NCBI GenBank assembly: GCA_044892505.1
Contig: CM097882.1
Coordinates: forward strand, 410,750,001-410,814,000
DNA: 64,000 bases
Source: Schmidtea nova
Lineage: Eukaryota
Direction: 5' to 3'
In this document: piece after piece, positions 18,129 through 33,985 of the stretch
Layout: each line of letters starts with the position of its first letter
How positions within the stretch are numbered: position 1 is the first letter of the stretch
Notes under the pieces: model-generated
Database searches by the model: none
What the model was told of the DNA's origin: nothing
Seen by the model: the letters and a program-made list of their open reading frames with translations, nothing else
Translations under genes and position numbers: made by a program

Positions 18129-18224
18129 AGTAGTACCATATGGGCTATCTACACCACCAGTACCCCCCCCTCCCCCTACCCCCCCCCCCCCCGATTTTTT
18201 TTTTTTTTTTTTTTTGAAATTTTT

Positions 18225-18483
18225 GAATTTTAAGGTCAATTTTTTACGCCATTTTGAATTTTAAGGTCAAATTTTTACGCCATTTTGAATTTTAAGGTCA
18301 ATTTTTTACGCCATTTTGAATTTTAAGGACAAAACTTTACGCCATTTTGAATTTTAAAGTTAATTTTGTACGCCATTTTGAATTTTAAAGTTAATTTTGT
18401 ACGCCATTTTGAATTTTAAAGTTAATTTTGTACGCCATTTTGAATTTTAAGGTTAAATTTCTACGCCATTTTGAATTTCAAGG
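18225..18483 (+). repeat. 31-bp minisatellite inside left TIR (8 copies plus partial)
   Basis: Unit GAATTTTAAGGTCAAWTTTTTACGCCATTTT and variants; mirrored at 33620-33880. Confidence 0.9.
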
Positions 18484-18485
18484 TC

Positions 18486-18899
18486 AAGTGGTGTTAAAAA
18501 TCAAAATATTGTCGGCCATTTTGAATCGGCCATTTTGTTTTTCAAGTGGTGTTAAAAATCAAAATATTGTCGGCCATTTTAAATCGGCCATTTTGTTTTT
18601 CAAGTGGTGTTAAAAATCAAAATATTGTCGGCCATTTTGAATCGGCCATTTTGTTTTTCAAGTGGTGTTAAAAATCAAAATATTGTCGGCCATTTTGAAT
18701 CGGCCATTTTGTTTTTCAAGTGGTGTTAAAAATCAAAATATTGTCGGCCATTTTGTTTTTCAAGTGGTGTTAAAAATCAAAATATTGTCGGCCATTTTGA
18801 ATCAGCCATTTTGTTTTTCAAGTGGTGTTAAAAATCAAAATATTGTCGGCCATTTTGAATCGGCCATTTTGTTTTCAAGTGGTGTTAAAAATCAAAATA
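18486..18899 (+). repeat. 58-bp minisatellite inside left TIR (7 copies incl. one 44-bp variant, plus partial)
   Basis: Unit AAGTGGTGTTAAAAATCAAAATATTGTCGGCCATTTTGAATCGGCCATTTTGTTTTTC; 6 copies mirrored at about 33248-33619. Confidence 0.9.
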
Positions 18900-19118
18900 T
18901 TTTCAATGTCAAAGTGGTGTTAAAAAACCAAAATATTTAGCGAATTTTTTCTATTACATTATTATCTAGATACTCGCATGATTTGTGGTAAGTATTTCGA
19001 GAACTTCATTTTTCAATGTTAATAAAAATTTAGCACAATAAAAAATTATTTACCTTACAATTTTAATAGTAGATTTATTAATTCTTCAAACAATTACTTC
19101 ACAGTACAATAAAATTAT

Positions 19119-19335
19119 CACAGGTCGCTATATAAGAACCACAAGTCACTATATTTACCACTGTTAACTATAAAAGAAATACACAGCTCACTATTTAAAA
19201 GACAACAAATGAAATAAACACTTTCTTTTAAAGAAATACCACAGGTCACTTTATAAAAACCAACAGGTTGATAATTCAATAAAAACAAAACTTTTAACTA
19301 TATAAAAAATGAATATCACAGGTCACTATTTAAAA
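19119..19335 (+). promoter_or_regulatory. Array of CACAGGTCAC + TATA-like motifs (5 copies)
   Basis: CACAGGTCGCTATATAAG (19119), CACAAGTCACTATATTTA (19140), CACAGCTCACTATTTAAAA (19182), CACAGGTCACTTTATAAAA (19240), CACAGGTCACTATTTAAAA (19317). The first three are mirrored in the right TIR. Function is inferred only. Confidence 0.45.
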
Positions 19336-19364
19336 TAACAAGAAAACTAATGGCGTTTATCAAA

Positions 19365-31081: not shown

Positions 31082-31552
31082 ATGTTAAGCAACATAAATT
31101 ACAAAGGCAGATGTTGTGTTTCCCATATGAAATTTCCAAATGGTAAACCACAACAAATTGTGGATAGGAGTGGAAAGTATCCAATTATATTTTTCAAGTC
31201 AGGGAAATGTAGAATAATGGGATGTAAACAGTCTCTTAAACCTGAAGATTTATTTTACGAAATAAATGATTTGCAAATACAATCAATTACAGTTACTACA
31301 GATATTGGAAATTGTGTCAATCTACACGAATTATCAAGAAACATTGATTGTCTATTTGAACCAGAAATATTTCCGGCATTGAGATATACTAAGTATAACC
31401 CTTTATGTGTAAATATATTCAACAGTGGTAAAGTAGTTATACTTGGTATAAAAACATTAAACTATCAGGATTTGATTGATGAAATTATTAACGACATCAA
31501 ATCAGTGATTGATGACGTGGAAATTTTGAATTTTTTATTACTCATTGTATAA
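31082..31552 (+). CDS. TATA-box-binding protein (TBP)-like protein, 156 aa
   Basis: The second half LQIQSI...D....L..L...FEPEIFPALRY...P...IFNSGKVVILGIK matches the TBP repeat-2 pattern YEPELFPGLIY...IFVSGKVVLTGAK. The first half has SNIN and IIFFKSGKCRIMGCK, matching repeat 1. Confidence 0.8.
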   Translation: MLSNINYKGRCCVSHMKFPNGKPQQIVDRSGKYPIIFFKSGKCRIMGCKQSLKPEDLFYEINDLQIQSITVTTDIGNCVNLHELSRNIDCLFEPEIFPALRYTKYNPLCVNIFNSGKVVILGIKTLNYQDLIDEIINDIKSVIDDVEILNFLLLIV

Positions 31553-31646
31553 TTACATAATAAAATACTTGATTTTGATTGGTTGACGGTGTGTTGAAAT
31601 ATTTAGTATATAACGCAGTTAATTTCATTAGATTTATATCAACAAA

Positions 31647-31996
31647 ATGTCTTTAAATATGTCTAATGGTAAGAATCGATTATTTTATAGTTATTTTTAA
31701 CATTCTCATTCGTTTAAGATAAACTGATGGGTGTTCTCATTTCAAAGATGGAGGATCTATACCCTAAACTGATGCGAGAACTTGTATATTGTGCTCCGGA
31801 GCTCCTGCTATATAAGATTCAAGCTATTACCGGCATCGATCTCAATGAAGTCCTGGCAGAACATCTACACAACTTAGATGATGATCTACCGAGCTGCAGC
31901 GCAAACATTGTCTGTGCATATAGATGTGATAGTTGTCTCTATAGGACACAGAAATATCACAAGTGGCTACTACGAAAAGAACTTAGAAAATTATAA
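31647..31996 (+). CDS. Small two-exon protein (99 aa), join(31647-31668, 31719-31996), with a C-terminal Cys cluster
   Basis: ATG...AATG|GTAAGA...TTTAAG|AT is in frame with the 89-aa ORF (50-nt intron). TATATAA at 31607 and ATTGG upstream; CSANIVCAYRCDSC near the C-terminus. Confidence 0.65.
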
Positions 31997-32448
31997 TTAT
32001 TAATTTTATGGTAATAAATGTTTAGAAAGTGTTATAGTGTTTAATATTTGTTTACAACCTATTTTTATTGTTTAAGTCTTGTATGACTTTATTTAAGAGT
32101 TTTATATCATTGTTTTATTAGTGGAAAATAAAATTTATTTCTAGAAATTGAATTTATTGATGTAGTCATTTTAGTAATTTTTATTGGTGGAATATTAAAA
32201 AAGTAATTTTAGGAATTAGTTTTTATATTTGTTTTATAATTATTAAACTCATTGAAACTATATTTAAAAAATCATTAGCAATAGAGATGCAAAACATATG
32301 CAAAACATGTGCATGACATTAGTCATGAATGCACACAAAGGTCATGAACTTGCAAACATAATGTGTAATTCATATGAACGAATTTCATTGGATGCACACA
32401 AAAAATAACGAGTATAAATACAAGGATAAATTTATATATCATCATAAA

Positions 32449-32898
32449 ATGCAATCTGTTTTCAGTTTCCAGAAATCAAGCCCAATCAAGAAAATATTTG
32501 AGGAGTCGAATGAAAATTCAAAGAAAATTAAACCAAATGTCAAACCCGTTCAAATGTTTCATGAACATCAAATGTTTTTCTTGGAAAAGGAAATTGAATT
32601 CAAATTCATTCATCCAGTTAATTTAGTCAAGTCACAATATTCAAATTTTATGGGGAAAATATATAAACAAGATGTTGTTGCTGTTAATAAAGTTCTGATG
32701 AAAATCAATAAAAATTTGACATGTAATGAAAATGTATTCTTCAACAATCGTAACAGCCGATATCATGATGACTTTCAACCAATAGAATATAAAGATCATG
32801 AAAATTGGTTTATTTCTATTACAATTCAAGGATATAAAATAGATGCTAAGGATGTTATGTCACCCATTTGGAGAATCGATAGCGCTAGACTTGCTTAA
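32449..32898 (+). CDS. Hypothetical protein, possible OB-fold ssDNA-binding protein (149 aa from MQSVF)
   Basis: Intact ORF. TATAAATA at 32413 with TCAT 31 nt downstream favours the ATG at 32449. The C-terminal ISITIQGYKI...SPIWRI strand pattern resembles viral OB-fold SSBs (weak). Confidence 0.45.
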   Translation: MQSVFSFQKSSPIKKIFEESNENSKKIKPNVKPVQMFHEHQMFFLEKEIEFKFIHPVNLVKSQYSNFMGKIYKQDVVAVNKVLMKINKNLTCNENVFFNNRNSRYHDDFQPIEYKDHENWFISITIQGYKIDAKDVMSPIWRIDSARLA

Positions 32899-32931
32899 AA
32901 TTTTTAATATATTTTTAATAAATGTTTAGTA

Positions 32932-33985
32932 TATTTCATTTGTTGTCTTTTAAATAGTGAGCTGTGTATTTCTTTTATAGTTAACAGTGGTAAATATAGT
33001 GACTTGTGGTTCTTATATAGCGACCTGTGATAATTTTATTGTACTGTGAAGTAATTGTTTTAAGAATTAATAAATCTACTATTAAAATTGTAAGGTAAAT
33101 AATTTTTTATTGTGCTAAATTTTTATTAACATTGAAAAATGAAGTTCTCGAAATACTTACCACAAATCATGCGAGTATCTAGATAATAATGTAATAGAAA
33201 AAATTCGCTAAATATTTTGGTTTTTTAACACCACTTTGACATTGAAAATATTTTGATTTTTAACACCACTAGAAAAACAAAATGGCCGATTCAAAATGGC
33301 CGACAATATTTTGATTTTTAACACCACTTGAAAAACAAAATGGCTGATTCAAAATAGCCGACAATATTTTGATTTTTAACACCACTTGAAAAACAAAATG
33401 GCCGATTCAAAATGGCCGACAATATTTTGATTTTTAACACCACTTGAAAAACAAAATGGCCGATTCAAAATGGCCGACAATATTTTGATTTTTAACACCA
33501 CTTGAAAAACAAAATGGCCGATTCAAAATGGCCGACAATATTTTGATTTTTAACACCACTTGAAAAACAAAATGGACGATTCAAAATGGCCGACAATATT
33601 TTGATTTTTAACACCACTTGACCTTGAAATTCAAAATGGCGTACAAAATTAACTTTAAAATTCAAAATGGCGTACAAAATTAACTTTAAAATTCAAAATG
33701 GCGTACAAAATTAACTTTAAAATTCAAAATGGCGTAAAGTTTTGTCCTTAAAATTCAAAATGCCGTAAAATTTTGACCTTAAAATTCAAAATGGCGTAAA
33801 AATTTGACCTTAAAATTCAAAATGGCGTAAAAATTTGACCTTAAAATTCAAAATGGCGTAAAAAATTGACCTTAAAATTCAAAAATTTCAAAAAATTTCA
33901 AAAAAAAAAAAAAAAAAAAAAAAAATCGGGGGGAAGGTAGGGGGAGGGGGGTACTGGTGGTGTAGATAGCCCATATGGTACTACT
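32932..33985 (-). repeat. Right terminal inverted repeat (~1,054 bp)
   Basis: Reverse complement of the left TIR; differs by one short minisatellite copy, homopolymer lengths and scattered substitutions. Confidence 0.95.

Follow-up and report, generated by a model that had tools for sequence, protein, structure and literature searches.

Ends and insertion site of the element

The window, i.e. the whole 64,000-nucleotide stretch of a Schmidtea nova contig analysed here, contains a Polinton element of 15,857 bp (18129-33985; Table 1), whose terminal letters are AGTAGT (at 18129) and ACTACT (to 33985). It is flanked on both sides by the hexamer TTAAAC, a perfect 6-bp target duplication. The insertion site belongs to a 1,287-bp tandem array with 30 homologous sites in the window. 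The other 29 are empty and hold the hexamer only once, which proves the duplication and bears out the perfect TSD reported by an earlier, sequence-only reading. The TIRs (about 1.1 kb) are identical at 1033 of 1059 aligned positions (97.5%). To call them near-identical, as that reading did, is fair, but they are not perfect: indels of 44 and 15 nt lie within the subterminal 31-bp and 58-bp repeats. A size of 15-20 kb, long TIRs, a 6-bp duplication and AG...CT ends are those of Polintons/Mavericks. An Rfam search of positions 14000-38000 gave no match, and no relative was found in a viral contig collection.

Table 1. Features of the element and of its insertion site (positions in the window)
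Feature	Position	Strand	Remark
Left target-site duplication copy	18123..18128	.	6 bp; single hexamer at 29 empty array sites
Left TIR	18129..19238	+	AGTAGT end; subterminal tandem repeats of 31 bp and 58 bp
pPolB exon 6	19365..23593	-	Cys/His-rich start, low-complexity linker, endonuclease-VII-like insert, exonuclease and polymerase motifs
pPolB intron 5	23594..24277	-	684 nt, phase 1
pPolB exon 5	24278..24364	-	87 nt, phase 1-1
pPolB intron 4	24365..24415	-	51 nt
pPolB exon 4	24416..24490	-	75 nt, within 125-bp exon-intron repeat
pPolB intron 3	24491..24540	-	50 nt
pPolB exon 3	24541..24615	-	75 nt
pPolB intron 2	24616..24666	-	51 nt
pPolB exon 2	24667..24744	-	78 nt
pPolB intron 1	24745..24794	-	50 nt
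pPolB exon 1	24795..24843	-	predicted start codon, Asn-rich
Predicted RNA polymerase II promoter of pPolB	24892..24959	-	ATTGG, TATATA, TCAC motifs
Conserved ORF	25177..25596	-	no Pfam match
Protease exon 2	25631..25970	-	His, Asp, Cys motifs
Protease intron	25971..26009	-	39 nt, phase 2, right behind start codon; in-frame stop if retained
Protease exon 1	26010..26014	-	coding part, 5 nt
Major capsid protein	26056..27276	-	double jelly roll, 406 aa, no intron
Basic ORF	27273..27665	-	130 aa
Penton (minor capsid protein)	27658..28704	-	348 aa, no intron
Integrase exon 2	28674..29296	-	catalytic Glu region and chromodomain
Integrase intron	29297..29340	-	44 nt, phase 1, directly past second catalytic Asp motif
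Integrase exon 1	29341..29728	-	both catalytic Asp motifs
Basic ORF	29796..30341	-	hydrophobic C-terminus
Packaging ATPase	30363..30986	-	A32/FtsK-like, no intron
TBP-like protein	31082..31552	+	156 aa; Pfam TBP, E 1e-14
Gene U exon 1	31647..31668	+	
Gene U intron	31669..31718	+	50 nt, phase 1, AAG acceptor; 54 nt in sister subfamily
Gene U exon 2	31719..31996	+	
Conserved ORF V	32362..32898	+	stop-to-stop frame
Right TIR	32908..33985	-	
Right target-site duplication copy	33986..33991	.	6 bp

Gene content

The element holds open frames for pPolB, integrase, ATPase, protease, major capsid and penton, i.e. the Polinton/adintovirus set that had been proposed for it. The integrase matches Pfam rve (PF00665) and carries a chromodomain, its D, D and E motifs being spread over two exons. 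The ATPase (PF04665, A32/FtsK-like) and the protease (PF00770, adenovirus-type) also have Pfam matches, and their motifs were located. For pPolB, DNA_pol_B_2 (PF03175) matches the C-terminal 711 aa with an E value of 6e-30, and the motifs were located; the full-length frame did not match PF03175, and a PDB sequence search with the polymerase as query gave no meaningful match. The endonuclease-VII-like insert may point to Polinton group 1. The capsid model (pLDDT 96) has iridovirus and PBCV-1 capsids as its best PDB matches (E 2e-15), and that of the penton (pLDDT 86) has the mavirus penton as top match (E 3e-8). By these predicted structures, the element has the double-jelly-roll capsid and the single-jelly-roll penton of polintoviruses.

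Every exon is free of stops and the catalytic motifs are present, in agreement with the claim that no core gene is disabled once the introns are removed. Capsid, penton and ATPase are each a single open frame without intron. Introns in these three genes and in the body of pPolB were considered and rejected, the frames being single and equal in length to those of intron-less relatives; further GT-AG candidates from a motif scan fall inside the same uninterrupted frames.

Among the remaining ORFs, 25177..25596 may resemble DEDD exonucleases, the 130-aa ORF 27273..27665 is a likely virion core precursor, and 29796..30341 a likely pX-like virion accessory protein. ORF V gave weak leads only in a protein atlas, and an NCBIfam search returned nothing useful.

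The eight introns

Eight GT-AG introns interrupt four genes, five in pPolB and one each in the integrase, the protease and gene U. Seven are short (39, 44, 50, 50, 50, 51 and 51 nt) and one measures 684 nt. The earlier count of at least seven short introns in four genes was therefore right, the long one coming in addition, but only three of these genes are core genes. Among 14 close copies, GT is the donor of every one of the eight introns; the acceptors are AG in 14/14 copies for seven introns, and that of the eighth was located in 11 of them. Among copies and relatives the splice ends persist, and intron length changes in steps that are not multiples of three. From gene to gene and from family to family the introns are unlike; those in the tandem repeat of pPolB are the exception.

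A single exon of 4.2 kb encodes the catalytic body of pPolB, and all five introns lie upstream, at the 5' end of the gene. Five pPolB exons are stop-free and every pPolB intron is in phase 1. Two sister subfamilies have the same exon-intron design with unrelated exon sequences, and the short introns would have multiplied through tandem duplication of exon-intron units. The length of intron 5 is 666-687 nt in close copies and about 440-1150 nt in other families. Its acceptor is at the same place in 12/12 loci, followed by GT or GC, either of which completes a Cys codon; in-frame stops immediately precede it in 9 of these 12. By this comparison the long intron is old and common to diverged families. 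The motifs ATTGG, TATATA and TCAC upstream of pPolB, whose promoter motif names we assume, stand at fixed distances from the start codon in 5/5 loci of diverged lineages.

The protease intron occupies the identical base in 36 of 38 loci, with lengths of 37-47 nt. These loci include four from metagenomes with 54-58% protein identity; this intron too is, on the alignments, old and common to diverged families. For the protease, a 49-nt intron whose frame would start at a codon further upstream was also considered; it was rejected because this frame is closed in a sister subfamily and because the 39-nt boundary is the one common across families.

For the integrase, the motif at the intron site is unbroken in 119 of the 120 long homologues listed (the search was restricted to proteins of at least 227 aa, which favours intron-less forms), whereas a 44-nt GT-AG segment splits it here. 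Of 156 matches examined (redundant loci), 90 bear the intron, and every one of these has GT-AG ends. The length of the segment is 40, 41, 42 or 44 nt, and its inner sequence is very different between families. In one family the length variation is mostly in a T run and may be of post-insertion origin. Exon 2 is under purifying selection, with a dN/dS of 0.11 against the other intron-bearing family. A sister family of the same genome has an integrase without the intron (75-80% protein identity; at least 107 matches, among those listed). Because this family lacks it, the integrase intron was likely gained within the lineage of the element and would be younger than the protease and long pPolB introns. 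A single gain is weakly supported, with an SH-aLRT of 81 in a 19-row tree and no resolution in a 55-row tree. Two outside proteins, P0215 and P0216, known from protein sequence alone, end just past the integrase intron site. Copies lacking the introns, which the earlier reading had named, together with a lack of spliced transcripts, as the sign of recent disabling insertions, did not turn up in the element's own family: it has 352 intron-bearing junctions and 0 intron-less ones.

Probable dependence on host splicing

The introns have the features of the U2 type: conserved GT-AG ends, free length, AT-richness and a reading frame restored by their removal. Host PGK genes likewise have AT-rich introns, of 46-57 nt, also with AAG acceptors. 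The seven host introns measured, a small sample with boundaries set by homology, are all longer (46-57 nt) than the 39- and 44-nt introns of the element. In four sequencing runs of unrecorded kind, which resemble genomic DNA, 0 of the 15 joints listed matches an intron (a further 478 lie beyond the listing); these runs speak neither for nor against splicing.

Since the splice ends persist, the protease intron is common to relatives and exon 2 of the integrase is under purifying selection, the introns are, from sequence comparison, inherited and not recent damage. Comparison of copies and relatives strongly favours a dependence of the element on host splicing. The sequence-only reading had called the element adapted to host splicing; this should not be taken for a recent change in this copy, because diverged families have the old protease and long pPolB introns in common, while the integrase intron is younger.

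Copies, recent movement and selection

The search for copies that the earlier reading had proposed gave at least 14 near-identical ones and 409 matches to the element terminus, with many young copies at unrelated sites. The 14 close copies, chosen as best matches, diverge by 0.40-1.17%, and 12 of them have their own perfect 6-bp duplication; AG...CT ends with a 6-bp duplication are likewise found in 12/14. No stop or split was seen in the tested ORFs of 6 of the 14. Because these copies are only 0.4-1.2% diverged, the family has, on this measure, moved recently, as the words "recently active" had implied.

Between families that have diverged strongly at synonymous sites, capsid, penton, ATPase and protease are all under purifying selection (dN/dS 0.02-0.09 for the capsid and 0.21-0.37 for the penton). 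This selection on the capsid genes is the one, indirect, sign in favour of a virus in the sense of a particle producer. Copy numbers are very high and many derivatives are deleted or palindromic. Read depth over the capsid-integrase block is raised 100-1000-fold. A polymerase-less family was considered from this depth and rejected, the copies being sister families with a diverged polymerase.

Comparison with known elements

As described in the available text of Krupovic et al. 2014 (PMC4028283), Polintons/Mavericks have in common with the element a size of 15-20 kb, pPolB, an rve integrase, a packaging ATPase, a cysteine protease, a double-jelly-roll capsid and a penton gene one gene from the capsid gene. 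What sets the element apart from them is its TBP-like gene and the introns of spliceosomal type that interrupt its pPolB, integrase and protease genes. The word "intron" is absent from that text, in which split capsid genes are given for 13 of 72 elements without explanation. The intact vertebrate Mavericks of Barreat and Katzourakis 2021 (PMC8097293) also have TIRs, the 6-bp duplication and the full core set; their definition, in the sections available, asks for intronless core ORFs, a filter that the element fails although it appears intact.

Introns are known from related elements in other settings. Nematode Mavericks (Widen et al., 10.1101/2022.07.12.499685) have the full core set and carry intron-bearing genes, as here, but in the available part of that source their core genes are intronless and the introns lie in captured cargo, whereas those of the element lie in core replication and maturation genes. 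Dinoflagellate polinton-like proviruses (Gozashti and Corbett-Detig, PMC12166617) have introns inside full-length elements; these are, in the portion available, mobile introner families, mostly post-integration, in proviruses of unclear intactness, in contrast to the vertically inherited introns of our recently active element, which are at fixed sites in diverged families. Animal adintoviruses (Starrett et al. 2021, PMC8502044) share the gene set, pX-like accessory genes and module swapping between lineages; the main text, as available, is silent on splicing and mention of a TBP-like gene is confined to a figure legend on non-animal elements. Spliceosomal introns in Polinton core genes are not reported in the available parts of PMC9004415, PMC6431247, PMC12220804 and 10.1101/2023.08.22.554363. 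Polinton core genes are generally described as free of introns, and three of those of the element depart from this.

Interpretation

With high confidence we read the locus as a complete, recently inserted Polinton/Maverick with eight conserved GT-AG introns, likely dependent on the host spliceosome. As in other Polintons, protein-primed synthesis starting at the AGT-repeat ends would copy the element, and the integrase would insert the new DNA, making the 6-bp duplication. Host RNA polymerase II would transcribe the element; the pPolB message would begin at the conserved TATA-type promoter and be spliced across five phase-1 introns, which would add a fast-evolving Asn-rich leader and complete a Cys/His cluster. 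Unspliced, the integrase would end at 143 residues, ahead of the catalytic Glu and the chromodomain, and the protease after two codons. The DNA of the element is probably packaged at some stage, since its capsid, penton and ATPase genes are conserved and lack introns. The protease and long pPolB introns would be old, and the integrase intron a later gain in one branch.

The same segments could be disabling insertions or frameshifts, and the intron-bearing families non-autonomous, mobilised in trans by the sister family, whose integrase is unbroken. That family is co-resident (at least 107 matches, among those listed), its integrase could in principle act in trans, and the removal of introns is deduced from DNA comparison. 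However, GT and AG are kept despite drifting length and inner sequence, exon 2 of the integrase is under purifying selection between intron-bearing families, and the sister family also has the protease intron and the polymerase acceptor; we hold this explanation to be very improbable. Somewhat less improbable, though still doubtful, is a reading that accepts the introns of integrase, protease and gene U but assigns the Asn-rich exons to a small gene of their own, with pPolB starting at the first Met inside exon 6. An in-frame Met occurs about 22 codons into that exon, the small exons are unlike between families, and exon 5 read past its donor terminates in a short hydrophobic tail. Yet conservation upstream of this Met reaches the fixed AG, with a Cys-compatible junction in 12/12 loci, in the families inspected the phase at the end of the last small exon is unchanged and a donor follows it, and the sole conserved TATA-type promoter found stands before exon 1.

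A more serious competitor, to which we give perhaps one chance in three, accepts splicing and makes of the element a purely intracellular transposon, with a capsid module kept for a role in the cell or left from recent viral ancestors and no infectious particle made at present. The very high copy numbers and the many deleted or palindromic derivatives fit it, and Maverick particles had not been observed according to the abstract of PMC8097293; against it stand the well-formed capsid models and the purifying selection seen on the capsid, penton, ATPase and protease genes of synonymously diverged families. Rather unlikely is the boldest extension of our reading, an obligately spliceosome-dependent clade of animal polintoviruses that still gains introns while replicating and making particles, with the TBP-like protein driving the capsid genes. 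If it were true, splicing of integrase and protease would be a gate tying integration and particle maturation to the state of the host cell, and the TBP-like protein would act on the intron-free capsid genes through a private promoter word, with YATAAACAA as the candidate. The introns would then be old in protease and polymerase and young in the active site of the integrase, with a polymerase leader rebuilt by exon duplication.

Surveys that require intronless frames would score such lineages as degraded or overlook them, and would read an intron-bearing integrase as a frameshifted pseudogene; contrary to the view of degraded copies, the intron-bearing families are young and abundant. Since several co-resident families differ by single introns, the gain of introns by a DNA virus-like element can be followed inside one genome. 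With its many young, intact-looking copies, the host is suited to the long-open question of Polinton particles. Polintons of a planarian are, in the available part of PMC8532177, reported as silenced by piRNAs and de-repressed upon differentiation.

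Element, insertion site and gene content

A TTAAAC hexamer flanks the element on either side. The insertion site lies inside an array of tandemly repeated 1,287-bp units. The window holds 30 homologous sites, of which 29 lack an insertion and have the hexamer once; the 6-bp target-site duplication, which the sequence-only reading had called perfect, is therefore real. That reading also described the terminal inverted repeats (TIRs) as near-identical. Of 1059 aligned positions 1033 are identical; there are in addition indels of 44 and 15 nt, which fall in subterminal tandem repeats.

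Pfam detects an rve integrase with a chromodomain, an A32-type ATPase, an adenovirus-type protease, a TBP-like protein and, in the C-terminal 711 residues of a long frame, a protein-primed polymerase (pPolB). The fold model of a 406-aa frame (pLDDT 96) resembles the major capsid proteins of iridovirus, PBCV-1 and virophage, and for a 348-aa frame the matches are the pentons of mavirus and Sputnik. The proposed core set is thus borne out, by Pfam for the four enzymes and by structural matches for the two virion proteins. Catalytic motifs were found in polymerase, integrase, protease and ATPase, and no interruption in the capsid, penton or ATPase frames. Against three other families dN/dS is 0.02–0.09 for the capsid and 0.21–0.37 for the penton. 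By every sequence feature tested the element is a Polinton.

The assembly (1.25 Gb, AT-rich) contains three very large contigs. The array shows higher-order periodicity. Its unit, without match in Pfam or Rfam, contains short open frames with GT/AG-like sites at their borders; the unit may represent an intron-bearing gene that has been amplified.

Coordinates of the features (window positions unless a locus is named)
Feature	Position	Strand	Remarks
Polinton	18129-33985		15,857 bp; first bases AGTAGT, last ACTACT
TBP-like gene	31082-31552	+	Pfam TBP, E 1e-14
YATAAACAA	31021, 30377, 29891, 29800, 27766, 27318, 25635	minus
Integrase intron ends	29293-29344		resembling each other
1,287-bp unit array	1-18128, 33986-54467		about 30 units, 95-99.8% alike
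DNA transposon remnants	54519-55522, 57138-59446, 60243-61117, 62860-63702		past the array; two without Pfam match, one mariner-type and one DDE_1-type fragment
Tandem penton-like gene pairs	L103:1393-3469, L162:6181-8305		two related elements

Introns of the element

The introns claimed from the sequence were located: there are eight, each GT-AG with a GC content of 10–22%. In 14 close copies the donors are GT throughout, and every acceptor that could be located is AG (14/14 for seven introns, 11/14 for one). Three introns vary among these copies by lengths that are not multiples of three. In two host PGK genes, seven short introns with boundaries set by homology measure 46–57 nt and include AAG acceptors; the element's introns are therefore of host type, those of 39 and 44 nt being slightly below the range of this sample.

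Introns common to related families do not count as independent events. Of 38 loci, 36 have the protease intron, which in the element is 39 nt long and follows coding base five; across these loci it measures 37–47 nt and ends in AG in 35 of the 36. It is missing in the most distant relative (41% identity) and could not be located in a rearranged copy. Four metagenome loci at 54–58% identity also have it. The intron of gene U, a gene of unknown function, is 50 nt long in the window and 54 nt, in equal phase, in a sister subfamily.

The integrase intron

This 44-nt intron lies immediately 3' of the second catalytic Asp motif. The motif is unbroken in 119 of the 120 long homologues among the matches listed, a set whose length limit favours intron-less integrases; the remaining one does not have the region. 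It is also unbroken in all 31 metagenome loci that reach the intron site (35 fetched). All 50 close loci, representing 33 distinct places by coordinates, carry the intron. A second family (83% protein identity) has an intron of 40, 41, 42 or 44 nt and different inner sequence at the same base. Exon 2 is out of frame if the intron is retained, and its dN/dS between the two intron-bearing families is 0.11 (pairwise counts), indicative of purifying selection.

A sister family of the same genome (75–80% identity, gene order as in the window) has an unbroken integrase and retains the intron in the protease and the acceptor in the polymerase. Two outside proteins (79–82% identity), known from protein alone, end just past the intron site. 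The six rows that have the intron or the stop group as one clade (support 81) in a tree of exon 1 with 19 rows; a tree with 55 rows does not separate them and places them inside a crown group in which the outside members lack the intron. The simplest, if unproven, reading is that the intron was gained once and fairly late.

The two ends of the integrase intron are similar, and AGGT stands at the site in five intron-less metagenome relatives. Both features would fit an intron born when a proto-splice site was tandemly duplicated. A close integrase relative, P0217, known from protein alone, passes from the donor site directly to C-terminal residues, a deletion or an alternative joint at that point.

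Polymerase exons and alternative readings

Upstream of its catalytic body pPolB has five small Asn-rich exons free of stops; their introns are all in phase 1 and the last is 684 nt long. In each of two sister subfamilies there are four exons of this kind, unrelated in sequence and equal in phase. The acceptor of the long intron holds its position in 12 of 12 loci, which come from diverged families. The two bases after it are invariably GT or GC and, joined to the T at the end of the upstream exon, yield a Cys codon; in nine of the 12, in-frame stops lie shortly before the acceptor. ATTGG, TATATA and TCAC stand at near-fixed distances upstream of the first start codon (5/5 loci). It seems unlikely that these exons are a separate gene and the polymerase shorter. 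Three of the short pPolB introns lie within a 125-bp exon-intron repeat and therefore likely arose by duplication.

That the segments are disabling insertions, with help supplied in trans, is highly improbable. Intron-less copies would have pointed that way, and in the element's family the intron-less integrase junction has 0 exact genome matches against 352 for the exon-intron junction. Polintons are copied by protein priming from their ends and reinserted by the integrase. Host polymerase II would transcribe the element, and the host spliceosome would have to act on the messages for polymerase, integrase, protease and U; an unspliced integrase would end at 143 residues, without the catalytic Glu. 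A purely intracellular life without particles, compatible with real splicing, is a reasonable possibility, though not the favoured one; that splicing gates a true virus cycle is rather doubtful.

Comparison with published Polintons

In the excerpts considered, intact vertebrate Mavericks show no introns, intronless frames being part of their definition (PMC8097293), and nematode Mavericks have introns in cargo and intronless core genes (bioRxiv 10.1101/2022.07.12.499685), in contrast to the element, with introns in three core genes. Those of dinoflagellate polinton-like proviruses are described in part of PMC12166617 as mobile introners, mostly acquired after integration, whereas those of the element are inherited. 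The excerpt of an adintovirus study (PMC8502044) does not mention splicing. Among the papers listed, titles and abstract openings report no inherited spliceosomal introns in animal Polinton core genes; Repbase, Dfam, Kapitonov and Jurka 2006 and supplements may annotate such. What appears new here is that introns are inherited in three core genes and that one, polymorphic between co-resident families, sits in the integrase active site.

TBP-like gene and candidate promoter word

The TBP-like gene has at least 94 homologues (dN/dS 0.13 against a sister subfamily) and also adjoins core genes in three metagenome loci (L101, L105, L126). The coding strand has seven copies of YATAAACAA against 0.77 expected, a count reached in 0 of 200 shuffles. 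Most of the seven stand shortly upstream of packaging and capsid genes; six are 35–105 nt ahead of ORFs, namely those for ATPase, pX-like protein, integrase, core and capsid and the one at 25177–25596. The word is a candidate shared late promoter, which the TBP-like protein may read.

Copies and related families

The 14 close copies, chosen as best hits, diverge from the window by 0.40–1.17%; the samples of copies are biased in this direction, and many loci are redundant. Both ends and an own perfect 6-bp duplication, at unrelated sites, were found in 12, in agreement with the recent activity already proposed, and six have no stop or split in the tested frames. The 30-nt terminus has 409 matches. 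The element is real, intact-looking and recently active.

For one sister family (L141, L143–L164), each of the 150 matches listed from the first 115 Mb of one contig (G000 C1) alone is 100% identical in protein across integrase exon 1. This suggests that the Polinton load is very large; copies there are nested within or adjoin one another. Elements of the family whose integrase has no intron (L136–L137, L071–L100) often form a giant palindrome, in which two integrase-capsid blocks face opposite ways at a distance of about 7.0 kb, with no polymerase between them. Mosaic subfamilies (L051–L062) are 87–92% identical to the window in the capsid-integrase block and 68–71% in the polymerase; for L051 the penton gene gives a synonymous distance of 0.025, the capsid gene one of 0.24.
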